This document shows, in pieces, positions 1,047 through 52,209 of a stretch of DNA of 56,467 nucleotides. Made by a program: the position numbers and the translations under genes. The DNA comes from Candidatus Nomurabacteria bacterium (GTDB taxonomy: Bacteria; Patescibacteriota; Patescibacteriia; Magasanikbacterales; UBA922): contig JACKFN010000006.1 in the NCBI GenBank assembly GCA_020632445.1, positions 1 through 56,467 on the forward strand, in the 5' to 3' direction. The first letter of the stretch is position 1. Every line of letters begins with the position of its first letter. The notes under the pieces are model-generated. The model saw nothing but the letters and a program-made list of their open reading frames with translations. It was not told where the DNA came from and ran no database searches.

Positions 1047-1075
1047 TTGACAAACTTGCCACATACTGCTATAGT
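1047..1075 (+). promoter_or_regulatory. sigma70-type consensus promoter upstream of GC-rich ORF
   Basis: TTGACA (1047-1052), 17-nt spacer, TATAGT (1070-1075), located in AT-rich DNA. Confidence 0.6.
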
Positions 1076-1128
1076 CAAAATAGAAGAATTGCGTGCAAAA
1101 GGAGGCATCGTAATTCATGATCTTTACA

Positions 1129-1188
1129 TAGACTAACGTCCTACACTGAGGATGGGGTACCTCTCCTCTGTCCAGGACGTTTAGTCTA
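1129..1188 (+). promoter_or_regulatory. inverted repeat / compound stem-loop in the 5' leader of the 1275 ORF
   Basis: tagactaacgtcct (1129-1142) pairs with aggacgtttagtcta (1174-1188): 14 bp with one extra T. It encloses an inner gagga/tcctc stem. The stop codon of the 4-codon uORF (1117-1131) forms the first 3 nt of the left arm. Confidence 0.5.
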
Positions 1189-1274
1189 CAGTAGGTAAGG
1201 GCACAGAGAGCCAATGCCAATCAGTTGACCACGCCCCTGGCAACGGGGGTATTACTGCGCGAAGGGAGACTTCC

Positions 1275-1967
1275 ATGCGCAACTTGACCCCCGCCGTGGC
1301 GTGGTCCTGCTGGGCCGCGCTGATCTTTGTTCTCGCCGCGTGCGGTGAGGACAACAGCCCCAACCCGGCCCCGCCCGTGGACAACCCGGGTGTGGAGAAC
1401 CCGGACGACCGCGAGATGACCCCGCCCGACGACCGCGAGATGACCCCGCCCGACGACCGCGAGATGACCCCGCCCGACGAGCCGCACATCTCCGACCCGG
1501 AGATGAACCGCTTCGCCGAGGACTGCGTGAACGCCGGCGGTGACGTCATGTCGGCGCCCCCGCCGATCGCCTGCAACGTGCGCGGCGACGTGTACGGCCC
1601 CGGCGACGAGCTCCCCGACCCCGAGGAGGTCGATGAGTTCGAGATGCTCTCGAACTACCTCGAACGAAGCTGGTGCATCACCCAGGTGGACGGCGACCTC
1701 TCATGTGAGCGCCCAACCTGGAACGAGGAGTGGCAGACCTTCGGTCCGTTCCCCGGCTCCCTCGTCGACATCGTCTACGAGGGCTTCAAGAGTCGCAACG
1801 ACAGCAACTGCTGGCACCAGGACGATGTCATCGCCATGAAGTGGATCTGCATCCCGAACTTCCCGGAAGAGAACTCGGAGATCGGCTACCGGATCTACTA
1901 CTCGTCCGCCGATGAGCTTCCTTCGGTCGAGGAGATGGCATCCGTGTTCTCGCGGAGCCACGACTGA
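1275..1967 (+). CDS. GC-rich putative secreted lipoprotein with PDDREMTP x3 repeat (likely horizontally acquired)
   Basis: ATG 1275 has GGGAG 6 nt upstream. The N-terminus MRNLTPAVAWSCWAALIFVLAAC is a signal peptide plus lipobox (LAAC). An acidic/Pro repeat and a 6-Cys C-terminal domain follow. GC3 codon bias is strong, unlike all neighbours. Confidence 0.75.
   Translation: MRNLTPAVAWSCWAALIFVLAACGEDNSPNPAPPVDNPGVENPDDREMTPPDDREMTPPDDREMTPPDEPHISDPEMNRFAEDCVNAGGDVMSAPPPIACNVRGDVYGPGDELPDPEEVDEFEMLSNYLERSWCITQVDGDLSCERPTWNEEWQTFGPFPGSLVDIVYEGFKSRNDSNCWHQDDVIAMKWICIPNFPEENSEIGYRIYYSSADELPSVEEMASVFSRSHD
1404..1475 (+). repeat. perfect 3 x 24-bp tandem repeat (coding)
   Basis: gacgaccgcgagatgaccccgccc occurs at 1404-1427, 1428-1451 and 1452-1475, with a 5-nt partial fourth unit. 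It is in frame and encodes DDREMTPP repeats. Confidence 0.95.
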
Positions 1968-1998
1968 TCCTCTTCACCTTCCCCTCCACCCCACCACC

Positions 1999-2024
1999 GT
2001 CATGACGAAACCCTTCGTCATGAC
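1999..2024. other. perfect 11-bp hairpin immediately downstream of the GC-rich ORF
   Basis: gtcatgacgaa (1999-2009), loop accc, ttcgtcatgac (2014-2024). No T-run follows. Confidence 0.8.
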
Positions 2025-2033
2025 ACCCCAATC

Positions 2034-2061
2034 AAAAAAGCGTCTATCGAGGCGTTTTTTT
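2034..2061. terminator. bidirectional intrinsic terminator between convergent genes
   Basis: aaaaaag-cgtc-tatcga-ggcg-ttttttt. The stem is short (one G:U pair) and is flanked by an A-run and a T-run. It lies between the 1967 (+) and 2129 (-) stops. Confidence 0.5.
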
Positions 2062-2128
2062 GATTGTTACATTTTTTACAAAAAAAGAGTAAACATGTAG
2101 CTTACTCTTTCAATATTTTTTTTGAATC

Positions 2129-5100
2129 TTACCTTGTCGGAACCACAATGATCTTTCCAGCAAATTCTACGTATGGTCTGTTATTAAAATTTGGATCATT
2201 TGGGTCAGTAATAACGTCAGAAAAATTCTTCTCGCACATAGGCAATTCGCTTCCTCTTATGCTAAAATCATCCCAACACCCCTCATACCCCACCATAGTC
2301 TGTGAATATTGTGGAGCAAACATTTGCTTTCTTCCTTCTCCCTCAAGCGAAGCACTTCCAGGGAGATATGGTGTCACAAAGAATCTTGATCCATTCTCTT
2401 CTGGTCCTAGGAATAGTGGCTGGTGATATGGCGAATCTTCCACATACAAGACATTTGCACCAAGCCTATATGGCTTATCAAATGCCACACCACTCCTGTT
2501 GTAGTTCGAACGATAGTCGGCGCTACACATACCATTACACCACCCCCAGTTATCCTTTACTTGTACGCGAGGTTTAAAGACACACACCTTGTCACCAACA
2601 CCAACATCATATTCACGCAATTCTCGAATTTCTGCTTCAGAAAATGTGTTATCATTCACAGTCTTTACCCAATCAACTCCACCACTATTGATATCATCCT
2701 GAGTACAGGTATATGTGTGAATAAACTCAAAGTATCCCTCATTACATGCCCTTTGACTATCCCCAAAGTATGCTGGGAAGGATTCACCTTCCGCAGGAAG
2801 TACACACTCCTGCACTGCATGGGTTTCTCCAGCTGCATCACGCCAGTATTCTATAGGACAGTCAGAATTTTGACTACAGAGCAATTGAAGTACTCCATCC
2901 TCATCATTTTCAGAAAGACCACGACAAACACCTATTTGACTTCCGGAAAATGAACTACTCTGACAAAATGGCTTCTGGTTTTTGTAGAGACCTACCTTGT
3001 TTTTGTTTACAATAGAGCTTCCATCCTGCCAGTCAACACGAACCTGACGGATAGGCATAGCATCGTGATCAGCAAAGGCAAAAAATTGCAACTTTGCAGG
3101 TGCTCTACCACGATAAATCATTGCGTCAACAAAGAAATCAGCGTCTTCATCTTCTTTGTCTTCTGGATACACTCCATCGGCATTATAGTCAGTCGTCAAG
3201 TATGTCCTTCCATTTACCGAAACATTATCTTTGGTTCCCGGAGTACATTTTGCGCTATCATTTAATGGAGAACAGGTAACCGGATTGAGAGAATAAATTT
3301 GAGGAGGAATGACTTTTCTTATTACTTCATTGCCCTGATTTCCAACTCTTCCTCCGTTTAAATTGAGTGTCTGTCGCAATAACAATCTACCATTCGCATC
3401 CAAACCGGAAACATCAAGATTTGTGATCGACTTGTCAACAACGTTATTATTCTCACCAAATCCAACTCTCTTAGAAATTTTACTAAAAAGTCCCTTCAAT
3501 ATACCCGCGGCACGTGCTGTTTCAACGTTTTGTGACAGGTCAATCCCTCCGCTCGTTGCAACATCGTTTCTTTCTATAAACTCAAATGGTGATGCAGGAT
3601 ATACATACATTGCATCCCTTCTATATAGCCCAGCACATCCACGGCTTCCATTTCCTCCAGCGGCATTAACTGGTACTTGTCCATTGATATCCGCCAAATA
3701 ATCATACGAAAGTAATTTCGAATCACATTTGTACGGAATACCATTGTAGTCTGGATATGCAAAGGATGCACGTGACAAAAGTAATGATCTGTCAGAGCTT
3801 TCCAAATCCCGATAACTCATAGGCAAACTACCATACGGAGGATTTGGGAACGCATGTCCAATAAATGAGCTATGCCATCCAGTTGCTGTGTCCTTTTGTG
3901 ACTCATTCCATGTTATGTTGGTCCATGCTTTGTTAGCGTCACCACTTATTGGATTAATATCTGAATTATGCACACCGCCATAGTCAACACAGATATCATT
4001 GAGTTCGGCGACAACTCCCACACTAAAGCCTCCGTAAGCGTAATCATCATCATCCTTTTCAGGATTACAAAATCGTGTAATGTACCCCAAAAATTCACCT
4101 TGCTTATTGAAATCCATTCCAATCGCCCAAAAACGACCTCCATTACTTCCTTTGTTTTCACAAATTTCAGAGAAAGGATCAGAACCTTGTATTGGGCGAC
4201 CAACACGGCCTGTGGTTGCAGTTTTCATAAACTCAGGTTCAAAGTCCCTTCCAAATTCTCCAATACTACCATTGTCAGCTAGCACAGCGACATACCTACG
4301 GTGAATTTTGTTTCTCTCGTCTGAAAATGGTGATACTTGATCTGAAATACCCACTCGATAATTGGTAGAATAACCACCGTGAGCAAGATAGTTGTCAAAG
4401 CTGAGGAGCCCATCGACATCACTTGCATCGAGCATATATGTCCACCATTTGTTACGAGCTTCTTCTCCACCATCGATGGTAGGATTTACTTGTCTATGTT
4501 TGTCTCCATATCTTCCAGGTCCTGAGACAAGCTCCAAATTAGCATGTGACTTGATTGATTGTAACTGCTCAAAGTCAATATACAGCTGCTTGTCATACAT
4601 GGCAGGAATACTTTGGTGAGACACATTTCCATGATACGAAGTCACCAAAAAGTAAACTTTGCGTATCTGTTTTTCGTTGAGTGAAGCTTCAATATCTGAT
4701 ACGTACACATACTCATTAGAATTTTTCTCCGGAGAGTAGTACTTTGTATTGATTTTTTGGTTTTCGAAATGGGAAAAAATTTCAGAATTTACAAATGACT
4801 GGTTAGCAACTTTTGCAAAGTCAACGGTATAGTCTGAAATAAAGCTTCCATCTTCTTTCCACAGCCGAGGAGGATGCATCACAGTACCAATTTCAAATCC
4901 TTCATAGTCTCCCCCATTATCACGTCCATCTTGGTTTGAATATGCCCATGTATTTGCGGCAAGCGTATATGGAGCCCATGTGTCAACATTGATTTCAATA
5001 CTTCCATTGTTAATTTCATATCCACCTGCGGCAGCACCATCGACGTTTCCACCATTACCACCCGCGACTCCCTCTCCCATAACATCGTGATGAGCAGCGC

Positions 5101-8100
5101 CCCCTCTGTCGTTTCTAAGTACAACGGCATCTTTTGAGATGTTGTACCAACTCCAAATTTGGAGCAAACTCGTGGTCCCTTTTGTCCCAGGACGACACAC
5201 AACTGCGCGAATATCGCCAGAACCATAGTCTGCATCTTCATCTTCAGAGCAGTCATCATCACCTGAAAGAGGCCTACCCGTATTCTCATCAAAATAGTTG
5301 TCTAAGAAATACTTCAAAAATGGCTTTTCACGATCACGTGCCCCATCAAATCGAAGTGGATAATTTGAGAACGTTAATTCAGAAATTTCTGCTATGTCTG
5401 TATTGTCAGCGTCAGGAATAACAATATCACCATTATTACCTCCTTCATACATTGAACCTCCCGAAGAGTACCGCGTGTACATGTTGCTGGCATCGTATGC
5501 GCCACTTTCCATGGACGTGCTATCGATACAATACACCTCACCACCGGTCGCCGCGCCGGTTGCATCTATGGCATCAATACTTGGATTGTATCCCGCTTCT
5601 ACATTTGAATTAAAGGTATCATTAAGTGCTGCAGAGATTTGCAGTGGCATCCAAGTGAGACATGGGTATTCCTTTCGTGTCTCGAGTTGTATTGGTCTAC
5701 TAAAATCTCTTTCCAGACAGTAACCTTCTACACCAATTCTGACTTCTTTTTTCGATAGCTTGTTACAAATCCCCGGTATAGCAGTAGTTTCTGCGGCTTC
5801 GCCTGGACGAGCAGATTCTGTGTACACATAGGTACAATCTGCGTCAACATTACATGCCTGACCAGCCAAACCATTTCCCGTACACTTCCCTGCAGGAAAA
5901 TTCTTGGTGAGTGGCCAATAATCAGAAGTAATGTCTTCCCCATAATTTACCTTAGTATATCCGCATGAACAATCACCAAACTGGCAAACATTTACCTTTT
6001 CAAAGCCTTGTACGTTCTGTATGTGATCTCTTCTAAACGCGAGATTGCCCTGGTTTTCTGCAATGCTACCACTAAATTGCTCCGCAACATAGTTAGGAAA
6101 CGGACTGTCCTGTTCCGGAAAACTCTTACAGCTACCACCTTCGAGGTATGGAAGGAGATTTGATTCAATTTCTTTCATCCTTTCTACTTGCTGATTGGCA
6201 TTTAAATCGACAAAATCCTCTTCATCGATACGAATACTTGCAGGGAACTGACCGGCAACCGGGTACAGACAACTTCCCTTGTAACAACGGCCACCGTTGT
6301 CTGGTCCACATGCCGTCCAGTTGAGTTCACTTTCGTTCCCTTGCTTACAAGCCCTATCAGAGAACCCTTCATTTCCTTGGTCATCTGGGTCACCGGCAAA
6401 AAACCGATCGTCAACTTTGTGACCTATATAGGTAGTATCATAACCCTCTACGGTAATGAAATATTCAAGATTTGGTATTTGTCTCCTGTTATATAAACTA
6501 TATCCTGTGTACTCAAAACCACTCCATGAAACATTTCTGGTAACATAGCTGTCGTAGTTAAGTGGCTCAAGACCATCGTCAATGCTCTGTGGAGTTACCC
6601 AGCTGACACATTCAGTTCCGTCTTCATTTCGTGCATTACACACTCCATATTCATAACACAGCGGCTCATCACGGCCAGAGATTTTAATTTTACTTCGACA
6701 TTCCAGCCACTCACTACACTGACGATCACGGTTCACCTTGATGATTCTGTTAGCGTCAAGTGTTCGCAAATCATCATTGCTAGGCTCGGTAACGACGTCG
6801 ACCAAACCATAGTTCCCTTCTTGAAAACTTTTCTGGTAGCTTGCTGCTGAGTTGTATACCCTATTAGGATCTTCGGTATAGTTAAAGAGAACACATCCTT
6901 CAGTCTGGCTTACCTGTCCATCACATTGTCCTTCTTTGTCAATAACTTTGTCATTGTAAATAAAGTAATATGGTTCTCCATTTGGATGCTCTGCAGAGGT
7001 GTCTTGTGGATCGATAAATTCACCGCACATGTGCTGTTCAAGTGGACATGAACCGACAAAACCGTCGTATCGGGGTGATTCATTAGAAAAAATTCCAAGC
7101 GCTTCTCCAACAGGAGTGTCCCGCCTCACAAAAAGTGGATCTCGGTAACAGGCTACTGGATCAGCAGTGTTACAGGTTCGAGCGCGCTCTCCATCTGGAG
7201 CCTGTCCACAATCAGCATCGGCCTTACACAACACATCACTGTCATGAGAACAGGTGCCCACTCCCTGGATGTACCAACCGGGAGTTCCACCTTCTGGCTG
7301 CTTGTACTCACAAATCTTGTTTCCAATAACTGCCGGGTCTTTGAAATATATATCAGCGTCCAAACTGAACGTTGAACAACCTAGCTGATCGGCACGACAG
7401 AGCATCTGAGAATAATTTTCAGGTCGATTCATGACATACACATCCTCAAACTGGTAAGCTGACGCCTGGTCATCACGAGGAAGAACCTGTGCCTGCTGCC
7501 CAACCTTAAGACATCCGACCTCATTTGACTGACAAGCAAAGTCCTGGCGAGCTGTCATATATAGAGGACTATCAGCCGGTGTATCTGCCGGAACGTAAAT
7601 ACTGGCAACATCCAAGATAAGTCTATTTTCTGCTGGCAAACCATCTCCAATTCTCCGCAGATCATCTGCATCAGCACCATCAGGCACAACCACTTGCTCG
7701 CCATTTATTTCTACTATTTCCAGTGTTTGATCAATGATAACATTGTTTGGTATATGACAAGTTGTCTGATCTGGAGCGACTTCACATTCAAAACTTTGAC
7801 CATCGTACAGCACCTTACATTTGTTTGAAAGTTCTCTTTCGCGAGATGACATCTCACAAAGCGTGTTGTATACGTGTGCCAAGTCATCCCCTGTCTCAAA
7901 GTCATTGGCTTCCTGTGAATATGAGTTGTAAGTGTCATACATTGGAATACAACCAACAGCATTTTCGCGGCACAGTTTATCAAACCCACTTGTAAACACG
8001 ATCCCCGTATCACCTTCGACATTGGTAAATTGATATTGAGAACAACCAAGTCCCTCTCCAGGAAGACCATCAGTTGGATTTGCGTCACAAGAAAGTGGAA

Positions 8101-11100
8101 CACTCGCGCGAACATTTTGTCCTTGATACTCTACAATGGTTTCCCAACTTCCCTTGATTCGGTATACCTTCTGAGTTGATGGCGAAAGCGAAAGTTTATC
8201 AATAAAGTATGGTTGATTTTGGTCGTCGTTGCTGACAAATACAAGGTTAAGTTCTTGAGAAGCATCTCCACCAAAGAGTACCGGACCCAAAACAACTTCT
8301 CTCCAATTATCTCCAACGGACACTTCTTCTACTTCTTGCTCTGCAATATTATAGGTAAACCGTCCCATTTCCTGACCACCTTGCTCAAAATAAATATCAA
8401 CCGCTTGCGCAACACCACGTGTCCAGAAACGAAGCTCATACCCGGTAGTATTGTCTGATTTGAGCATACCTCCATCAATATGATACTGCGCCCGCACAGC
8501 GCTGATCTGGAGTGAATGTTCATTTGGACTAAGTCCCTCTGCTGCAATCTGTAAATCATTATCATTTTGCGCTGCAAAACCACCCATAGCTTCTTGCAAT
8601 GACTCTTCATTTCCGAAATCATCGGCCTCAAAATCATGTGAGAAAATCGGCGCTGCGACATTGTTTCCACCATTTCCAACATACTCTCTACACATCGCAG
8701 CATCAGGGTTACAACTTTCGGTTCCCTGACCACCTTCAATAGCCTCGTAAATACACACTCCATTTTCATATTTTCCGCCCCCCTGACATCTTTGACATAC
8801 CGGCTCGTCAATTGGAAGATCAAGGTTTTGATTTTCGAGTTGAATTTGGCTTGGAGCTTCCCAAAGACCTCCCCATTGCTGACAGACGTCCTGATCACCT
8901 GCACCAGAGACATTTACATCAATATAAAGCTCTGCGTTGGTCTTTCGAAATGGATTACACTGCGCTGATATTTCTACCGTCTTGGTAACCAAACGATAAT
9001 ATTCCTGGTTATCATCATCAAAGAACCGCAAACACTGCGTTGACCCTTGGTTGTCAGGATTAATATTGTTGATACGATTGTTATACGTCTCTTCATTACA
9101 AAGTTCAAGATATCCAGCGATAACTGCAGGGTCAAAACTATCATAAGCAGGAGATCCTACTGGGAACACCTCATCAAGCTGCGCTTGAACAAGACCATCA
9201 ATAGCACCACGCTGTGCCATGCGAGCTAAATAATCATGTACCTGATCATCGATCTGCAAAAGCCTATGAGTTCGAAGTCGCTGTCCATCGTCTACAGAAG
9301 CTTCCCACGTATAGAATGTTTTTTCATTTTCACGATTGGCGTCTGGCTGCTCACAAAAACGAATCTTCTTGAAATATGCTTCACGCTCACCGGCACCAGC
9401 GGAGAGATCGGTAAATTCTTCACATCCAACGTCTTGCGCTCGACACTCGCCGGCATTTTGACTGTATGGATTGATGTACATTGGGAATTTTTCTGACTCA
9501 AATTGTACCCCCACTTGTCTGTACGCACTGTAGCCAAGACACTCCTGGTTACAAGAACTTCCTCCGACAATTCCCGGCACGAGTGGGTTGGCAGCAACAT
9601 CTCCGTCCACGGTAAGCGGAGTAAATGCCTGACATCCCACCTCCTGCTCAACACAAACCTGTGAAAACTCTCCACACGCAGGATTATTTGGAAGGTCATT
9701 AATTACTTGCGCGAGCGTAGTTGGCCAATCAATTTCTGGAGTAGACCGATCAATATCGTAACAACCCAAATAGTCTGGGGCCTTTTTGAGGAACAGACGT
9801 GTCTGGTTGCTTGCATCTGGATTAGTATAAAAAGCACTACAACCTTCTGCTTCTTGGTTTGCACAGTAGTTTGAAGAGACTTCACTGTTGAGGTAGAGGC
9901 TTCCGTTTCTTCCAAGAAGTTTTAAGTCAACATTAGATGCCGTTTGGTAACTATCAATCCACTGACCATTCTCATCTTGCTCAAGCGCATAGGCAAGACA
10001 TCCACTTGAATTTGCATCACACTGAGCGTAGTCAACGGTTCTTGCCAAGTATGGTGTTATTTGACCGGTAACCTGATTGGTATAGGCCTTACAAGTCGCA
10101 TTTTGCCACTCACAACTATCAGCGCCTGTTCTCCAAATATTTTCTTCTTTGAGACAATATCCGTACGCCTGTGGAGTAACACACTTTCCACTTTCATTTT
10201 CATAAATACAGGTAGAAATGTCTGCGCATTCTGGTTTACGAAGTGCCAAATCCGGCGCCAAAAGCTCAGGACCATACACTCCCATTTCACACTTATGGAG
10301 CGGAGCACGAAGTACCCAATTTGGATTGAGTATTCGACACCATCTAAATTCTGGATCACCAAGCCTCGAAGTATCCAAAAGTTTTTCTCCGGTATCTCCA
10401 TCAATATCATCAATACCATCTCCATTATCATCAACATATGGACAATCATCAAATCCCTCGATAACTTCTTTGAGCGTTGGTGGCTGATCTGGGTCAGAAC
10501 GCAATGCGGCTATCTCAAATCCAAGAGGCAATATTCTTTGTCTACGAAGTTTTTGGAGGTTTGAGTAACAATACGCACCATTGTAGCAGTCCTTATCGTT
10601 ATGCTCTGCTTCATTTACCGGAGAAATTAATTTCCAACTACCATGGAGATACTCGGTTCCATCACCACTACCATTGAGATTCATCGCCTGAGCAATCGTC
10701 ATTGGCTCAGAATTGTTGGCAATATCAAGAGCCTGCGCAAAATCATCATCGATTACACAGTTATTAAGACCCGGATTATCTGGACATGTTCGCATATCCT
10801 GCAAAATATCCTGTGATCCTACCGGAAGTGGATTGACGACCTTCAAGAACGAAAATTCTTTTTTGGCACGCTCACGTGGGTCTATGGCACTGGTATCATT
10901 TTCAAATGAAAGCCCCTGAGCTCCCCTACCTGGATCTGGATAAAGACCTTTGTTGAAGATTTTATCAAGCATCTGATTTGCCAAGGTGTTCAAAAAGACA
11001 GAAGCCGCCATGGGGAAAATCTGCCATGCCTCGGCAGCATACAAACCAGTTATTTGACTGGTAGTGACTTCTCCTTCGTGTTTTGAGGTGTTGACCTTCG

Positions 11101-11863
11101 ATTCTTCTTTGATGGTTTGAGCTGGAGAGAGAATTTTTCCAGAGATAAGACTGGTCAAACTCTTAAAACCATCCCCTTCTTGTCTATCCAGCTTGGCCGA
11201 CTCTGATCGACTGGCACGGCTCTCATCGATCTGTGCAATACCATCAAGCGCAATACCAAAATCGGAATCACTTACTTGAAATGAAGTCGCAAAAACCTCG
11301 TCCATAAAACGAGATCCACCTGGTCCATATTTTCTTTCAAAGGTTTCCTGACTCCAACCATCTTTCAATTTTTGCCAGTTACAAGCACTACCATTTTGGC
11401 CAGCTTTAGCATCGGCATAAGCATTTCGAAGACCAATACGAAGGTTAATAAGCAAGTTGGCGTCTGGAATTTCACACAAATTGAGCCCAGCCTTTTTTCC
11501 GATGGCTTCTACGGTTTCTGCTACGGCGTCACCAGCGGCCTGACCCAGGTAATCCCCAAACGAATCTTGGTGCACGAGTGGGTTTTTTCCTTTTCCACCT
11601 GAAGAAATGTATACCGCTGAATTGTAGGCCAAATCACGCGCATACCGAGACGCAGCGTTTACAAGTACCTGCAATGCACTGGAATACAAAGCATCCCAAA
11701 ATGACGCCTTCACGTCTTTTTGAGTCATGTATGCAACCACGTCAGGAGCTCCAGTAATAGCATAACTTCTTTGGGCATACAAAAATGAGCCCATCACCTG
11801 TATGATCAAAAATACACCGATAAAGAACGCGAGGAAAATTTTTTTGGTCGTGTTTTTTTGCAT
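2129..11863 (-). CDS. giant (3244 aa) Cys-rich secreted/surface protein, N-terminal signal-anchor
   Basis: Uninterrupted 9.7-kb ORF starting at ATG 11863. The N-terminal segment KKIFLAFFIGVFLIIQVMGSFLYA is hydrophobic. The sequence is very Cys-rich from about residue 360 on. It carries acidic DxDxDG-like stretches (DDNGDGIDDIDGDTGE). I recognise no catalytic motif. Confidence 0.85.
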   Translation of the reverse strand: MQKNTTKKIFLAFFIGVFLIIQVMGSFLYAQRSYAITGAPDVVAYMTQKDVKASFWDALYSSALQVLVNAASRYARDLAYNSAVYISSGGKGKNPLVHQDSFGDYLGQAAGDAVAETVEAIGKKAGLNLCEIPDANLLINLRIGLRNAYADAKAGQNGSACNWQKLKDGWSQETFERKYGPGGSRFMDEVFATSFQVSDSDFGIALDGIAQIDESRASRSESAKLDRQEGDGFKSLTSLISGKILSPAQTIKEESKVNTSKHEGEVTTSQITGLYAAEAWQIFPMAASVFLNTLANQMLDKIFNKGLYPDPGRGAQGLSFENDTSAIDPRERAKKEFSFLKVVNPLPVGSQDILQDMRTCPDNPGLNNCVIDDDFAQALDIANNSEPMTIAQAMNLNGSGDGTEYLHGSWKLISPVNEAEHNDKDCYNGAYCYSNLQKLRRQRILPLGFEIAALRSDPDQPPTLKEVIEGFDDCPYVDDNGDGIDDIDGDTGEKLLDTSRLGDPEFRWCRILNPNWVLRAPLHKCEMGVYGPELLAPDLALRKPECADISTCIYENESGKCVTPQAYGYCLKEENIWRTGADSCEWQNATCKAYTNQVTGQITPYLARTVDYAQCDANSSGCLAYALEQDENGQWIDSYQTASNVDLKLLGRNGSLYLNSEVSSNYCANQEAEGCSAFYTNPDASNQTRLFLKKAPDYLGCYDIDRSTPEIDWPTTLAQVINDLPNNPACGEFSQVCVEQEVGCQAFTPLTVDGDVAANPLVPGIVGGSSCNQECLGYSAYRQVGVQFESEKFPMYINPYSQNAGECRAQDVGCEEFTDLSAGAGEREAYFKKIRFCEQPDANRENEKTFYTWEASVDDGQRLRTHRLLQIDDQVHDYLARMAQRGAIDGLVQAQLDEVFPVGSPAYDSFDPAVIAGYLELCNEETYNNRINNINPDNQGSTQCLRFFDDDNQEYYRLVTKTVEISAQCNPFRKTNAELYIDVNVSGAGDQDVCQQWGGLWEAPSQIQLENQNLDLPIDEPVCQRCQGGGKYENGVCIYEAIEGGQGTESCNPDAAMCREYVGNGGNNVAAPIFSHDFEADDFGNEESLQEAMGGFAAQNDNDLQIAAEGLSPNEHSLQISAVRAQYHIDGGMLKSDNTTGYELRFWTRGVAQAVDIYFEQGGQEMGRFTYNIAEQEVEEVSVGDNWREVVLGPVLFGGDASQELNLVFVSNDDQNQPYFIDKLSLSPSTQKVYRIKGSWETIVEYQGQNVRASVPLSCDANPTDGLPGEGLGCSQYQFTNVEGDTGIVFTSGFDKLCRENAVGCIPMYDTYNSYSQEANDFETGDDLAHVYNTLCEMSSRERELSNKCKVLYDGQSFECEVAPDQTTCHIPNNVIIDQTLEIVEINGEQVVVPDGADADDLRRIGDGLPAENRLILDVASIYVPADTPADSPLYMTARQDFACQSNEVGCLKVGQQAQVLPRDDQASAYQFEDVYVMNRPENYSQMLCRADQLGCSTFSLDADIYFKDPAVIGNKICEYKQPEGGTPGWYIQGVGTCSHDSDVLCKADADCGQAPDGERARTCNTADPVACYRDPLFVRRDTPVGEALGIFSNESPRYDGFVGSCPLEQHMCGEFIDPQDTSAEHPNGEPYYFIYNDKVIDKEGQCDGQVSQTEGCVLFNYTEDPNRVYNSAASYQKSFQEGNYGLVDVVTEPSNDDLRTLDANRIIKVNRDRQCSEWLECRSKIKISGRDEPLCYEYGVCNARNEDGTECVSWVTPQSIDDGLEPLNYDSYVTRNVSWSGFEYTGYSLYNRRQIPNLEYFITVEGYDTTYIGHKVDDRFFAGDPDDQGNEGFSDRACKQGNESELNWTACGPDNGGRCYKGSCLYPVAGQFPASIRIDEEDFVDLNANQQVERMKEIESNLLPYLEGGSCKSFPEQDSPFPNYVAEQFSGSIAENQGNLAFRRDHIQNVQGFEKVNVCQFGDCSCGYTKVNYGEDITSDYWPLTKNFPAGKCTGNGLAGQACNVDADCTYVYTESARPGEAAETTAIPGICNKLSKKEVRIGVEGYCLERDFSRPIQLETRKEYPCLTWMPLQISAALNDTFNSNVEAGYNPSIDAIDATGAATGGEVYCIDSTSMESGAYDASNMYTRYSSGGSMYEGGNNGDIVIPDADNTDIAEISELTFSNYPLRFDGARDREKPFLKYFLDNYFDENTGRPLSGDDDCSEDEDADYGSGDIRAVVCRPGTKGTTSLLQIWSWYNISKDAVVLRNDRGGAAHHDVMGEGVAGGNGGNVDGAAAGGYEINNGSIEINVDTWAPYTLAANTWAYSNQDGRDNGGDYEGFEIGTVMHPPRLWKEDGSFISDYTVDFAKVANQSFVNSEIFSHFENQKINTKYYSPEKNSNEYVYVSDIEASLNEKQIRKVYFLVTSYHGNVSHQSIPAMYDKQLYIDFEQLQSIKSHANLELVSGPGRYGDKHRQVNPTIDGGEEARNKWWTYMLDASDVDGLLSFDNYLAHGGYSTNYRVGISDQVSPFSDERNKIHRRYVAVLADNGSIGEFGRDFEPEFMKTATTGRVGRPIQGSDPFSEICENKGSNGGRFWAIGMDFNKQGEFLGYITRFCNPEKDDDDYAYGGFSVGVVAELNDICVDYGGVHNSDINPISGDANKAWTNITWNESQKDTATGWHSSFIGHAFPNPPYGSLPMSYRDLESSDRSLLLSRASFAYPDYNGIPYKCDSKLLSYDYLADINGQVPVNAAGGNGSRGCAGLYRRDAMYVYPASPFEFIERNDVATSGGIDLSQNVETARAAGILKGLFSKISKRVGFGENNNVVDKSITNLDVSGLDANGRLLLRQTLNLNGGRVGNQGNEVIRKVIPPQIYSLNPVTCSPLNDSAKCTPGTKDNVSVNGRTYLTTDYNADGVYPEDKEDEDADFFVDAMIYRGRAPAKLQFFAFADHDAMPIRQVRVDWQDGSSIVNKNKVGLYKNQKPFCQSSSFSGSQIGVCRGLSENDEDGVLQLLCSQNSDCPIEYWRDAAGETHAVQECVLPAEGESFPAYFGDSQRACNEGYFEFIHTYTCTQDDINSGGVDWVKTVNDNTFSEAEIRELREYDVGVGDKVCVFKPRVQVKDNWGWCNGMCSADYRSNYNRSGVAFDKPYRLGANVLYVEDSPYHQPLFLGPEENGSRFFVTPYLPGSASLEGEGRKQMFAPQYSQTMVGYEGCWDDFSIRGSELPMCEKNFSDVITDPNDPNFNNRPYVEFAGKIIVVPTR

Positions 11864-36242: not shown

Positions 36243-36302
36243 AGAATTGTTTTTTTCTGATATTTGTCGTACACTAGTAAGCACACACCCTGGGAGTTCA
36301 CC

Positions 36303-36578
36303 ATGCGAAAGATGATTCTGATTCCCTCTTCGGCCAACGCGAAGGGCATCGTGCTGATGCTGGTCAATGTGATCTTCATGTCCATGCTGAGCTTTGAGCC
36401 GCCCTCCATGAGCTTGGATCAACTCGCTCTGTACGCGCAGCTGGGCGTGGTGCTGATGATCGCCGATGGCGCCATGCTGATGTACTACGTGTGCAAGCAA
36501 TTCACCTCCATGCATCTCGTCGATGAAAGCGAACAACCGCCCACCACCGAAGCTTCCACTCCCACCTCAAACTCCTAG
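36303..36578 (+). CDS. GC-elevated small (91 aa) two-TM membrane protein, likely acquired
   Basis: ATG 36303 has GGGAG 6 nt upstream. Hydrophobic segments are GIVLMLVNVIFMSMLSF and LGVVLMIADGAMLMYYV. Hand-counted G+C is 31/60 (36361-36420) and 38/60 (36421-36480). It is plus-strand between minus-strand gnd and zwf. Confidence 0.6.
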   Translation: MRKMILIPSSANAKGIVLMLVNVIFMSMLSFEPPSMSLDQLALYAQLGVVLMIADGAMLMYYVCKQFTSMHLVDESEQPPTTEASTPTSNS

Positions 36579-36592
36579 CCACCCATGCTAGG
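36574..36592. other. 6-bp GC hairpin overlapping the stop codon of the 36303 ORF
   Basis: cctagc (36574-36579), loop cacccat, gctagg (36587-36592). The TAG stop at 36576-36578 lies inside the left arm. Confidence 0.6.
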
Positions 36593-36608
36593 TCTTCTCA
36601 TTTATGGG

Positions 36609-38036
36609 CTATCCCTCATCCCAATCAGTATGATAGGTACCAGCCCTGTCATCCCTCTGATAGGTATGCGCCCCAAAATAATCTCGAAGCCCCTGGATAA
36701 AATTCGCAGGCATATGCTCAGCAGTACTGTATTCAAAATAGTAGAGCGCTGATGAAAATCCTGGAAGTGCCACACCACTTTGTGACATGCTTGCCACCGC
36801 ACTTCGTAAATCTTTTACATTCTTTTTCATGAGTGCCTGAATCTTTGGCAAGGCAAAGAGGTGTTCATCATGCCTTCTTGTCTCACTATAGGCATCCCCC
36901 AGTACACTGAGAAGCTTCGCTCGGATAATGCATCCACCTTCCCAAATTCGTGAAATTTCTTTCATATCTATCTTCCATCCTTCTTCTTTTGCGGCCTTAC
37001 AGATCAAATGGTAGCCTTGGGCATATGAGCTGAACATAGCAGCATAGAGCGCGTTTTCGAGTTGCTTTGTAAACTGCCCCAGCGTAATAACTTTTCCTCT
37101 CTTGGCAGGAGTATACTTTTTCGACAGTGCTACTCGAAGATTTTTTTCACTGGAAAGAAAACGAGCAAAAACCGCTTCATTGATCGTCGGTGTACTTACC
37201 CCTCGCTCAAGTGCATCAAGGGATGCCCACTTCCCTGTCCCCTTTTGTGAAGCAGTGTCCAAAATATGATAAACAAGACAGCATGAATTCTTGTCTAATT
37301 CATCTTTTTGACGAAGCACCGGCAAGGCGATCTCCAACAAATACGATTGAAGCTTCCCTCGATTATACTTTTGAAAGATATCCGCAATTTCTGGAGGAGA
37401 GAGTTTGTACACCTTCCTCAAAATCTCGTAACTCTCCGCCATAAACTGCATCACTGCATATTCAATTCCATTATGCACCATTTTTACATAATGACCAGCA
37501 GCACCAGATCCAACGTGAGTAACACACGGACCTTCAGAAAAATCTTTGGCAGCTATTTTGGTCAAAATAGGTTTCATCACCCTCCATGCTTGCATAGACC
37601 CTCCTGGCATAAGCGATGGACCATACAAGGCGCCATCCTCTCCTCCTGAGACACCGCATCCCATATACAAAATCCCTTTTTTTAATAGTGCTGCCTCACG
37701 TCTTTTGGTATCACCATAGTATGAATTTCCGCCATCGACAATGACGTCTCCCTTTTGTATATGTGGCAAAAGTGCTTTGATGACGGCATCAACAGGCTGG
37801 CCAGCTTGCACCATGATCATGATGCGGCGTGGACGCCTAAGTGATTGTACAAAAGTCTTGAGGTCACCAAATCCCGTGAAATTCCCTTCAAAATTCAAAA
37901 GAAACTGCTCTGTTTTGTTAAAGCTTCTATTATAAACGGAAACCGAAAAGCCTCGCGACTCGACATTTCGAGCAAGATTAGCTCCCATGACACCAAGTCC
38001 AATGAGACCAAAATCTGATGTGGGTTTTTGTGGCAT
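36609..38036 (-). CDS. gnd: 6-phosphogluconate dehydrogenase (decarboxylating)
   Basis: N-terminal GLIGLGVMGANLARN Rossmann motif. Length of 475 aa is colinear with Gnd. Confidence 0.93.
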   Translation of the reverse strand: MPQKPTSDFGLIGLGVMGANLARNVESRGFSVSVYNRSFNKTEQFLLNFEGNFTGFGDLKTFVQSLRRPRRIMIMVQAGQPVDAVIKALLPHIQKGDVIVDGGNSYYGDTKRREAALLKKGILYMGCGVSGGEDGALYGPSLMPGGSMQAWRVMKPILTKIAAKDFSEGPCVTHVGSGAAGHYVKMVHNGIEYAVMQFMAESYEILRKVYKLSPPEIADIFQKYNRGKLQSYLLEIALPVLRQKDELDKNSCCLVYHILDTASQKGTGKWASLDALERGVSTPTINEAVFARFLSSEKNLRVALSKKYTPAKRGKVITLGQFTKQLENALYAAMFSSYAQGYHLICKAAKEEGWKIDMKEISRIWEGGCIIRAKLLSVLGDAYSETRRHDEHLFALPKIQALMKKNVKDLRSAVASMSQSGVALPGFSSALYYFEYSTAEHMPANFIQGLRDYFGAHTYQRDDRAGTYHTDWDEG

Positions 38037-50638: not shown

Positions 50639-50857
50639 TTAGATGACGAGCATGGCAACTCCAAGTGCAAAGAAAATGAGTGCAAGCACTATGGTTGCCC
50701 TATGTAAGAAGAGGTCAACACCACGTTTGGTAAGGGTTACTCCACCGCCTGTTCCACCAAATCCAGCTCCAAGCCCATCACCTTTTTGCTGAAGCAAAAT
50801 AGTGAGCATCATAACGATTCCAACGATAACTTGTGCAATAGTAAGTACTTTTTCCAT
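50639..50857 (-). CDS. secG: preprotein translocase subunit SecG
   Basis: 72 aa with two TM segments and LLQQKGDGLGAGFGG in the Gly-rich loop. Confidence 0.85.
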   Translation of the reverse strand: MEKVLTIAQVIVGIVMMLTILLQQKGDGLGAGFGGTGGGVTLTKRGVDLFLHRATIVLALIFFALGVAMLVI

Positions 50858-50894: not shown

Positions 50895-51006
50895 GATCCA
50901 ATTTTGTCCTGATTTCTCCGGGTTCCATTTATGAGTACAAGATGTATTCAATGGCGATAGTGTACAAAAATACGGCTTTTTTGTCAATACTCAAACATCT
51001 CAACCC

Positions 51007-51035
51007 TTGACAAATGTGCTAAAATATGCTAATAT
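51007..51035 (+). promoter_or_regulatory. consensus promoter upstream of GC-rich ORF
   Basis: TTGACA (51007-51012), 17 nt, TAATAT (51030-51035). Confidence 0.6.
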
Positions 51036-51076
51036 ACCTTGTTCCCACATATGTGCCCAAGGGGCAGGAGGTTGTG

Positions 51077-51697
51077 ATGGGATGGCACAAGAACCCCGCT
51101 TTGTGGGGTGTCGCACTGGGTCTTCTGGCCGTTCAGGTCCTGCTGGCCGCTCTGGGCTGGTGGAAGGCCCTGTGGTGCCTGGACACCAGCCTGATCGTCG
51201 GAGTCACTGTCTGGAACTTCCGTGAGTTCTTCCGGAAGTTCGCGTTCAACGACCAGTTCGATGGACAGCTCCCACTCGTCATCCAGTCCATTCCTGGGCT
51301 GCCGCGACGCCAGGTGCGCATGCGCTCGGTCGTGATCCGACGCGTGAACGGCACCGGTCCCTTCGCCATCAAGCTGGGGATGCGCCTGATGGACGGCCTG
51401 GACTGGTACGGCGCGGTCAACAGCGGAGACAAGAGTGGCGGCCACACCAACACGCTGGTGTTCGAAACCTTCGTTGGCAGTCGAAACTGGGGCATGGTCG
51501 TCATGTACCGGAGCCGGCCCAACACGGCCAGCATACAGGTCGAAGGGCTTGGCGAAGTGACGATGCGTAACGGGGTTTCCATCCTCGACCCTCGTGACTT
51601 CACCATCGAGGTGACCGACCAGCCTCCCTTCGCCCCTACCCAGACTTTCGCTCCCCACCTCATTCAACGCATCCTGGCCCGACTCGGCTGGATGTAG
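51077..51697 (+). CDS. GC-rich membrane-anchored protein of unknown function, likely acquired
   Basis: AGGAGG (51066-51071) lies 5 nt before ATG 51077. The track's 51026 start would sit inside the promoter. The N-terminus is hydrophobic (ALWGVALGLLAVQVLLAALGWW) and is followed by a soluble domain of about 150 aa. Hand-counted G+C is 44/60 for 51301-51360. Confidence 0.7.
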   Translation: MGWHKNPALWGVALGLLAVQVLLAALGWWKALWCLDTSLIVGVTVWNFREFFRKFAFNDQFDGQLPLVIQSIPGLPRRQVRMRSVVIRRVNGTGPFAIKLGMRLMDGLDWYGAVNSGDKSGGHTNTLVFETFVGSRNWGMVVMYRSRPNTASIQVEGLGEVTMRNGVSILDPRDFTIEVTDQPPFAPTQTFAPHLIQRILARLGWM

Positions 51698-51702
51698 AAG
51701 CC

Positions 51703-51722
51703 GGCGCGCCCCACCGCGCGCC
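51703..51722. other. 7-bp all-GC hairpin just after the stop of the GC-rich ORF
   Basis: ggcgcgc (51703-51709), loop cccacc, gcgcgcc (51716-51722). No T-run follows. Confidence 0.7.
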
Positions 51723-51765
51723 ACCCTCAACACACAAACGTTTGAGCATAAAAATATCTAAACAC

Positions 51766-51787
51766 AGCGCCAATAGGCGTTTTTTTG
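51766..51787 (+). terminator. intrinsic terminator
   Basis: agcgcc-aata-ggcgt followed by ttttttt, located in AT-rich DNA. Confidence 0.55.
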
Positions 51788-51827
51788 TTTGTATATTTAT
51801 ACGCTGAGATATTTGCATGATATCCCC

Positions 51828-51856
51828 TTGACAGCCTGAACATTGTATTGTATAAT
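51828..51856 (+). promoter_or_regulatory. rpmE promoter
   Basis: TTGACA (51828-51833), 17 nt, TATAAT (51851-51856). Confidence 0.7.
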
Positions 51857-51885: not shown

Positions 51886-52209
51886 ATGAAAACTGACATC
51901 CATCCAGAAGTCAATCCAGTCGTCTTTGTAGACACTTCTTGCGGAGTGGAGTTTGTGACTACCTCAACCATGAAATCAGAGGAGACACGCGATATCGATG
52001 GGGTAACACACTATGTGATCAACCTCGAAATCTCATCAGCTTCGCACCCATTCTTTACCGGAAAGCAGGTCTTTGTCGACACTGCACGCCGTGTGGAAAA
52101 GTTCCAAGAAAAGATGAAGAAAGTAGAAGCCAAGCAAGGTTCTGCTACCAACAAGAAGGCAAAACGTGCTGCCAAGGCTGCAAAAAAGGAAGACAAGGCA
52201 GCTGCATAG
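51886..52209 (+). CDS. rpmE: 50S ribosomal protein L31 (non-Zn type, Lys/Ala-rich C-terminal tail)
   Basis: MKTDIHPE...SHPFFTGKQ. It has only one Cys, with SSASHPFF in place of CxxCHPFF. The tail is KKAKRAAKAAKKEDKAAA. Confidence 0.9.
   Translation: MKTDIHPEVNPVVFVDTSCGVEFVTTSTMKSEETRDIDGVTHYVINLEISSASHPFFTGKQVFVDTARRVEKFQEKMKKVEAKQGSATNKKAKRAAKAAKKEDKAAA

Follow-up and report, generated by a model that had tools for sequence, protein, structure and literature searches.

Among described genetic systems, those closest to the element considered here are (i) genomic islets, as understood in the Lawrence-Ochman amelioration framework, (ii) phage morons, and (iii) integron cassettes. The element is a single-gene islet, rich in guanine and cytosine (GC), that lies between secG and rpmE at positions 51007-51788 of contig JACKFN010000006.1 from a Candidatus Nomurabacteria bacterium; the window referred to throughout is the whole stretch of DNA analysed, 56,467 nucleotides (nt) of that contig. 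Patescibacteria are described as carrying many genomic islands that stem mostly from transfers within the phylum, in an account that does not address persistent GC-rich islets (PMC12455944). Our literature search found no description of persistently GC-rich islets in bacteria of the candidate phyla radiation (CPR) or in Patescibacteria.

Like a genomic islet, the secG/rpmE islet combines atypical GC content and codon use with an orphan-like product and with presence in some genomes and absence from others at a site of conserved synteny. It differs from one in lacking a mobility gene, a tRNA, flanking repeats, and a donor-like homologue: the window holds no tRNA and the gap no mobility gene, and neither flanking direct repeats nor target duplications at the islet are convincing. 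It also differs in that the compositional anomaly has persisted through near-saturating divergence and is strongest at third codon positions. With phage morons, the islet shares its own promoter and terminator, a deviant composition, and a small membrane protein as product, but it sits between chromosomal housekeeping genes, the loci examined show no prophage context, and no relative of the islet was found in PHROG, IMG/VR, or GenBank phage sequences. An integron cassette likewise consists of a single open reading frame (ORF) closely followed by an inverted repeat, and the corresponding gap of one relative also holds a neighbouring accessory ORF. In contrast to a cassette, the islet has its own promoter, its inverted repeat is a 7-bp GC stem rather than a 57-141 bp attC with R''/R' cores, and there is no array. 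The 20-nt hairpin is unique, its motif occurring once across the window and the loci collected from relatives, and no integrase-like ORF lies near the gap, which rules out a cassette. A target or template repeat of a diversity-generating retroelement was likewise rejected, as blastn of the islet against the whole 56-kb window returned no second copy; no ORF of the window stands out as reverse transcriptase-like, and two Y/F-x-DD motifs in unrelated ORFs are chance occurrences.

The secG/rpmE islet is a real, self-contained, monocistronic accessory gene unit. The explanation that we favour, and hold to be rather probable, is that it is an old, vertically inherited gene unit of a Patescibacteria protein family that encodes a membrane-tethered module and whose GC content is held by a fixation bias. 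Under this explanation, the islet would have inserted into the short divergent secG/rpmE gap in an ancestor shared by at least three of the lineages sampled, and a GC-favouring fixation bias would keep its synonymous sites at G or C while they turn over. The GC-rich version probably came from another Patescibacterium or from an unsampled mobile element of that phylum.

The compositional deviation is pronounced. Mean GC in the window is 42.9%, and two strong GC-rich blocks stand out, at ~1114-2063 (island 1, described below) and 50990-51795. The islet ORF has a GC content of 0.623, or z = 8.3 against 621-nt background windows (mean 0.425, standard deviation 0.024, maximum 0.509), and GC reaches 44/60 in 51301-51360. 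At the first, second, and third codon positions (GC1, GC2, and GC3), the islet ORF has 0.62/0.44/0.81, compared to 0.53/0.37/0.39 in long host ORFs. Preferred codons are CTG, GCC, AAG, TTC, and ATC, and NNC codons are strongly and consistently chosen over NNT; TTC accounts for 12/12 phenylalanine codons in the islet and for 39/42 over three orthologues, against 19% in the host. The edges of the block are sharp (~51036-51730). In 30-nt windows, GC rises from 0.30 to 0.53-0.57 at ~51036, directly past the -10 box, and falls from 0.87 to 0.30 at ~51730. The non-coding parts of the transcript participate, with GC contents of 0.59 in the 5' untranslated region (UTR) and 0.77 over the initial 35 nt of the 3' UTR. 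Elsewhere in the window, a moderately GC-rich patch (0.54) at 36266-36628 lies within a minus-strand gene and contains the highest background 621-nt window (0.509).

The age of the islet can be gauged from its relatives. A search of 5.8 billion proteins returned a single homologue, P0002, which has 212 amino acids (aa) and is 52% identical by BLASTP. Its contig, L001 (Logan SRR29965070, 41.7% GC), is an independent assembly and has the gene order of the window: SBP gene, secG(-), islet gene(+), rpmE(+), and prfA, the window neighbours of the islet being secG, the SBP gene, RNase J, rpmE, and prfA. In a DNA alignment of window and L001, homology extends over promoter, ORF, GC hairpin, and terminator, with the two proteins 52-55% identical. 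Scanning metagenomes with the protein of the neighbouring SBP gene yielded 24 further loci, 9 of which keep the secG|rpmE-prfA arrangement. One of these, L026 (JGI Ga0210019_1000020, contig GC 0.374; prfA ~70% identical to that of the window), carries in the gap a 150-aa ORF in the same orientation as the islet gene and of the same family (hmmsearch E = 1.7e-8; hhalign 96.5%). In L027-L034, synteny is likewise kept, but the secG-rpmE gap spans just 135-324 bp and holds no gene, so the islet was inserted into an ancestrally short intergenic region. The divergence of the islet protein follows that of its neighbours: window and L001 are 55% identical for the islet protein, 71% for SBP, and 84% for prfA, while the corresponding identities of each to L026 are 28%, 58-59%, and 69-71%. 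The islet gene tree is congruent with the host tree, and the insertion would predate the split of at least three sampled Patescibacteria lineages, with vertical inheritance since.

The gap has received other genes as well. In L001, an additional 148-aa gene (8521-8967, plus strand) with an N-terminal transmembrane (TM) helix and a GC3 of 0.55, against 0.35 in its host, follows the islet terminator and precedes the rpmE promoter; the window lacks it. In L035, the gap holds an 81-aa ORF unrelated to the islet. Together, the two indicate that the secG/rpmE intergenic region tolerates insertions.

Although old, the islet has not acquired the composition of its hosts. GC3 of islet and host is 0.81 and 0.39 in the window, 0.775 and 0.35 in L001, and 0.70 and 0.30 in L026, with nearly constant logit offsets of 1.87, 1.85, and 1.70, respectively. 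In the L001 and L026 copies, GC1 and GC2 are host-like and GC3 is strongly deviant. Host four-fold degenerate sites are near saturation, the residual identity above chance being 0.14-0.15 between window and L001 (prfA, SBP) and 0.03-0.17 in comparisons with L026. Between window and L001, 32/63 four-fold sites of the islet differ, in 17 cases by an exchange between G and C, in 14 between a GC and an AT state, and in 1 between A and T; the corresponding counts for prfA are 7, 51, and 14. The many G-C exchanges and few AT states of the islet indicate that many substitutions occurred while composition was held. Synonymous divergence (dS, by NG86) between window and L001 is 0.78 for secG, 0.88 for the islet, and 0.58 for rpmE, compared to 4.3 for prfA and 2.0 for SBP; the low values may reflect codon constraint in small, highly expressed genes or later recombinational exchange. 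An amelioration calculation with a two-class mutation model at host equilibrium, run with the most lenient local dS (0.58-0.88), has the excess GC3 shrink since the window/L001 split to ~0.5-0.6 of what it was then, so that the ancestor would have needed a GC3 above 1. Neutral amelioration therefore fails, and the composition calls either for a fixation bias towards GC or for re-import that happened repeatedly.

Such a bias most likely stems from selection acting on the nucleotides or codons of the transcript (NNC codons, mRNA stability, or regulated decoding), with localised GC-biased conversion as the second option. More specific causes were rejected. High-expression translational selection cannot be the sole cause, since at four-fold sites the islet and the highly expressed rpmE choose different codons: the islet favours CTG, GCC, GGC, and CGC, while rpmE prefers GCT/GCA, CCA, and GGA. 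A specific conserved mRNA structure is ruled out, as folding of the whole transcript goes only marginally beyond that of shuffled sequences (z = -1.65). Antisense dual coding would constrain third positions, but the frame of the 234-aa antisense ORF over the islet is broken in both L001 and L026. The long antisense ORF is a composition artefact, as had been suggested in an earlier note written by a model from the sequence of this DNA alone.

GC could also be kept high by a local neutral process, one option being GC-biased gene conversion (gBGC) at a recombination hotspot. In the converse option, mutation in these genomes is not AT-biased, selection keeps native genes AT-rich, and accessory genes under weak constraint drift to GC-richness. 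We regard this as unlikely. The constant logit GC3 offset in three lineages would be expected if the coefficient of conversion or selection were constant, the UTRs of the window transcript are GC-rich along with its coding sequence, and the property is common to many unrelated islets of the clade. However, the very sharp borders match the transcript body while promoter and terminator stay AT-rich, GC3 does not rise in the flanking secG and rpmE, and the 5' UTR of L001 is not GC-rich. As an argument against diffuse conversion tracts, the borders are weakened by a constraint for AT-richness on the promoter and terminator themselves. The effects of gBGC reported in bacteria are small, which counts against that form of the process.

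Repeated replacement would place the maintenance of GC outside these chromosomes. The gap would be an insertion hotspot in which each lineage acquired, or re-acquired, a family copy from a GC-rich reservoir (for instance a phage or plasmid of Patescibacteria, or a GC-rich sister lineage, not yet sampled), and GC content would measure the time spent elsewhere. The variable contents of the gap (the extra TM gene of L001 and the unrelated ORF of L035), the frequency of GC-rich orphan islets in the clade, and the lack of direct similarity between the L026 protein and those of window and L001 would fit this scheme, and the contrast in dS between secG, islet, and rpmE on one side and prfA and SBP on the other is compatible with later exchange. 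Yet replacement would have had to draw on one rare family (23 proteins in 5.8 billion) for one gap in one orientation, window and L001 have homologous AT-rich promoters and terminators, and gene and host trees agree. Neither an integrase, tRNA, flanking direct repeats, or attC-like site nor a viral or plasmid relative was found. Repeated replacement is accordingly judged rather improbable.

The earlier note implied a recent import from a high-GC donor, in which case the islet would still be ameliorating and the islets of the clade would stand at different stages of decay. Composition and codon use (CTG, GCC, GGC, CGC) do resemble those of high-GC bacteria, the site is empty in outgroups, the borders of the GC block are sharp and include a GC-only hairpin of the kind typical of high-GC terminators, and GC3 is graded, from 0.91 in island 1 through 0.81, 0.775, and 0.70 in the three orthologues to 0.55 in the extra L001 gene. 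Protein, cluster, and viral-contig searches and tblastn against phages and plasmids nonetheless returned no homologue in any high-GC organism, phage, or plasmid. Family members outside the secG/rpmE locus are all Patescibacterial and of native, for the most part low-GC, composition; in five other contexts (six loci), GC contents of gene and contig are 0.33/0.36, 0.25/0.26, 0.26/0.29, 0.51/0.515, and 0.33/0.33. Given these native-GC members and the absence of a high-GC homologue, a high-GC donor is not supported. The insertion is, moreover, common to lineages with near-saturated synonymous divergence, its synonymous sites have turned over yet stayed G or C, with no decay of GC, and its codon positions 1 and 2 are host-like while position 3 is not, although amelioration should give the opposite order. 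A recent import is thus doubtful: the island described in the earlier note is a genuine, foreign-looking unit inserted in the gap, but it appears to be neither recent nor derived from a high-GC donor. An assembly chimera or contaminating high-GC fragment, with the abrupt composition change as its sole support, is effectively refuted, because three independently assembled lineages carry a related GC-rich gene of a Patescibacterial family in the secG/rpmE gap with host-type promoter and terminator.

The islet protein is a divergent, fast-evolving member of a small, unannotated family restricted to Patescibacteria. It has no match in Pfam (E<=1) or NCBIfam, and a metagenome scan with its profile found none either. 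An exhaustive HMMER search over 1.84 billion cluster representatives gave two marginal matches, which a profile search expanded to 23 proteins of ~150 aa without a Pfam domain. One of them is a hypothetical protein of a metagenome-assembled genome named Candidatus Moranbacteria. Searches with the family against PADLOC and PHROGs and a sequence-profile search against PDB gave no consistent match, the PDB search being empty. The window/L001 pair (A1) aligns to the other 20 sequences (A6) over 128 columns (hhalign 98.8%, E = 1.1e-16); the hmmsearch value of the A5 profile against the window ORF (E = 1.5e-36) is not independent, since that profile contains the window sequence. Nine columns are invariant in 22/22 aligned sequences (E50, K54, F55, F57, V86, F96, D109, H194, and Q197 in window numbering), and the family signature consists of an N-terminal TM helix, the motifs ELLKKFxF, GMYNIVL, GxDYYG, and TYLGKG, and a C-terminal PPHWxQRLGFYG. 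Relative to other members, proteins of the window/L001 branch carry an additional N-terminal TM helix and an insertion of ~35 aa. Family genes occur in unrelated chromosomal contexts with no conserved operon. The islet gene is under purifying but relaxed constraint, with a ratio of nonsynonymous to synonymous divergence (dN/dS, NG86) of 0.49 and a dN of 0.43 compared to 0.06-0.21 in flanking genes. A further member, P0022 (L024 2961-3389, L025 507-935), has in-frame TGA codons under table 11 and neighbour genes that look fragmented; its contig probably comes from a UGA-recoding lineage.

An AlphaFold run with the 22-sequence alignment gave a model with a pLDDT of 82 and a pTM of 0.70, whereas an earlier two-sequence run was poor (pLDDT 59). 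TM helices are predicted at ~7-25 and 29-61, in agreement with the hydropathy peak, followed by an eight-strand beta-sandwich at ~68-191 and a C-terminal helix at 195-203; a low-confidence segment (151-164) falls in the lineage-specific insertion. The anchor noted earlier as a single hydrophobic segment is therefore modelled as two helices, while the statement that the remaining domain could not be assigned holds for Pfam, NCBIfam, PADLOC, PHROGs, PDB, and Foldseek. Foldseek against PDB and BFVD returned nothing at E<=1e-3, and its top entries are generic sandwiches of jelly-roll or CBM-like type that reach TM scores of 0.2-0.3. A cluster of basic residues (K/R) follows the last TM helix in all family members, from which the positive-inside rule predicts a cytoplasmic beta-sandwich; the extra helix of the window protein would keep an N-in, C-in orientation. 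The layout resembles that of bPH proteins of the YdbS/YdbT type, with two N-terminal TM helices, a small cytoplasmic beta-sandwich, and a C-terminal helix cap. Membership is not supported, as the islet protein, unlike bPH proteins (PF03703-type), has no Pfam match (E<=1), PDB fold match (E<=1e-3), or PDB sequence-profile match. In the favoured explanation, the helical hairpin would anchor the protein in the membrane, the beta-sandwich and C-terminal helix would face the cytoplasm, and the cytoplasmic domain may act as a membrane-tethered binding or adaptor module.

Several points weigh against an old, vertically inherited unit held at high GC. The dS values of secG and rpmE are low, and the segment may have been exchanged between lineages after the genomes split. 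The direct similarity of the L026 protein to the window/L001 pair is not significant, and it is taken as a putative orthologue because it belongs to the family and agrees in position and orientation. Only three lineages enter the amelioration argument, which relies on a simple substitution model with two classes. As to the cause of the proposed fixation bias, the folding signal is marginal, and four-fold codon preferences are unlike those of rpmE. The function of the protein is proposed only from predicted topology and fold, and the absence of a significant Foldseek match makes 'binding module' a weak description.

The architecture of the unit (Table 1) bears out most of what the earlier note had read from the letters: the peak of 44 G+C in 60 nt is reproduced exactly, the codon bias is confirmed, as is the composition (the z score and GC3 contrast given above), and promoter, ribosome-binding site, 206-codon ORF, GC hairpin, and AT-rich terminator are as it gave them. 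The flanks match the SecG and L31 orthologues of L001, in accordance with the divergent gap that it proposed. The junctions, which it wished to see verified, are real, as the architecture is reproduced in two independent assemblies (L001 and L026), and the synteny comparison that it called for revealed GC-rich family genes in these two relatives, where native-composition orthologues would have spoken against an island, and an empty gap in L027-L034. The palindrome cacatatgtg, however, lies at 51046-51055 in the 5' UTR, one position upstream of where it had been placed. It is absent from the L001 alignment as a conserved element, and dozens of 10-bp palindromes are estimated to arise by chance per 56 kb; a role as operator is ruled out on both grounds.

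Table 1. Coordinates of the islet, its flanks, and other GC-rich orphan islets of the clade. Positions without a locus name refer to the window; SD, Shine-Dalgarno sequence.
Feature	Position	Strand	Remarks
sigma-70-type promoter	51007-51035	+	TTGACA 51007-51012, 17 nt, TAATAT 51030-51035, TG extended -10; 10/12 match
5' UTR	51036-51076	+	SD AGGAGG 51066-51071, then 5 nt, then ATG 51077; GC 0.59; GC-rich block starts here
islet ORF	51077-51697	+	206 codons, stop TAG 51695-51697; Patescibacteria-only unannotated family
all-GC 7-bp hairpin	51703-51722	+	GGCGCGC-CCCACC-GCGCGCC; starts 5 nt past stop codon
weak middle hairpin	51726-51746	+	CUCAA...UUGAG; fold of 3' UTR
intrinsic terminator	51766-51788	+	stem 51766-51781, 6 bp, AATA loop, T-run
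secG	50639-50857	-	left flank; 72-aa ORF; divergent from islet; 82% identical to L001 gene with PF03840 SecG
secG promoter-like site	50894-50866	-	promoter scan 11/12 with TG
rpmE promoter	51828-51856	+	12/12 consensus
rpmE	51886-52209	+	right flank; 90% identical to L001 gene with PF01197 (L31)
GC-rich orphan islets	L003 1719-2411; L004 229-2978; L028 1288-2611; L032 10497-11357		between housekeeping genes
GC-rich orphan islets	L005 1247-2075, 9916-11032, 12083-12936		between housekeeping genes

The islet promoter is AT-rich and host-like in composition, and its sequence is kept in L001 (TTGACAAA..GCTAAAATATGCTA); the region contains 7 promoter-like sites compared to 1.3 expected. The database gene call P0001 (223 aa), for which no record as a gene of a contig was found, begins at an ATG at 51026, inside the -10 region of this promoter, while the orthologue alignment and the SD sequence point to 51077 (206 aa) as the true start. 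The 5' UTR region folds no better than shuffled sequences (z = +0.24), and Rfam has no match in the window at gathering thresholds. The all-GC hairpin probably forms the 3' end of the mRNA or stabilises it, and it shows a compensatory change, from GGCGCGC/GCGCGCC in the window to GGCGCGT/ACGCGCC in L001. At the place matching the middle hairpin of the window, the 3' UTR of L001 has a hairpin of other sequence. The terminator stem also covaries (GCGCC/GGCGU in the window, GUGCC/GGCAC in L001), and the terminator insulates the rpmE promoter.

GC-rich islets of this kind recur in the clade. A scan of 347 kb of its loci detected 16 GC-elevated segments, of which ~13 are distinct and roughly ten count as strong islets. 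The tabulated islet ORFs of the distant relatives L003, L004, L005, and L032 have GC3 values of 0.74-0.89 in hosts with 0.22-0.53, and that of L028 has 0.68. Two of the ORFs, L004a and L004b, are paralogues. No Pfam domain was found in 10/10 island ORFs tested, nine from relatives and one from island 1 of the window. The islets of L032, L026, and the window are built alike, with a GC-rich ORF behind a host-type promoter, an all-GC hairpin lying 0-6 nt past the stop codon, and, where seen, a canonical terminator; in L026, the rpmE promoter directly follows the hairpin.

Island 1 (window 1048-2065) is a second autonomous GC-rich unit, with a composition more extreme than that of the secG/rpmE islet. 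Its promoter begins with TTGACA at 1048, a 5-codon mini-ORF lies at 1118-1132, and the 5' leader (1085-1280) shows strong structure (z = -4.4) but has no Rfam match at E<=1. The ORF at 1275-1967 encodes a lipoprotein-like orphan of 230 aa with a GC3 of 0.91 and a 24-nt tandem repeat in 3.4 copies (DDREMTPP) at 1404-1485, and its protein has no homologue among the 5.8 billion proteins searched. An 11-bp hairpin (1999-2024) and a strong terminator (2030-2065) follow. The terminators of island 1 and of the secG/rpmE islet (2050-2067 and 51775-51792) share AGGCGTTTTTTTG(A/T)TTG with 17/18 matches (E = 0.13), which could be chance between simple terminators or a common 3' module. Island 1 is adjoined by a giant, cysteine-rich ORF of 3244 aa (2129-11863, minus strand) with an N-terminal TM or signal segment.

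It is possible, though we put it forward tentatively, that this AT-rich Patescibacteria clade has a class of autonomous orphan genes whose GC-rich synonymous composition is maintained over the long term by a gene-specific fixation bias. Members of the class would share the layout of host-type promoter, GC-rich ORF, all-GC hairpin past the stop, and AT-rich terminator; the bias would be selection on transcript composition or localised biased conversion, and the 'foreign' composition would be stable and functional.

The analysis defines a new Patescibacteria-specific protein family that has a confident fold model and no known relative, and it corrects the gene start given in the database. Its wider meaning concerns the reading of composition. 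Compositional deviation is routinely read as recent horizontal transfer, with amelioration used as a clock, and the secG/rpmE islet would be a strongly deviant gene that has stayed at a fixed chromosomal site through deep divergence without decay of its GC3. The recurring orphan islets suggest either that synonymous sites are under a force so far unrecognised or that Patescibacteria have an unsampled reservoir of GC-rich genes. If the behaviour of the islet is general, the amelioration clock fails for a class of genes in CPR bacteria.

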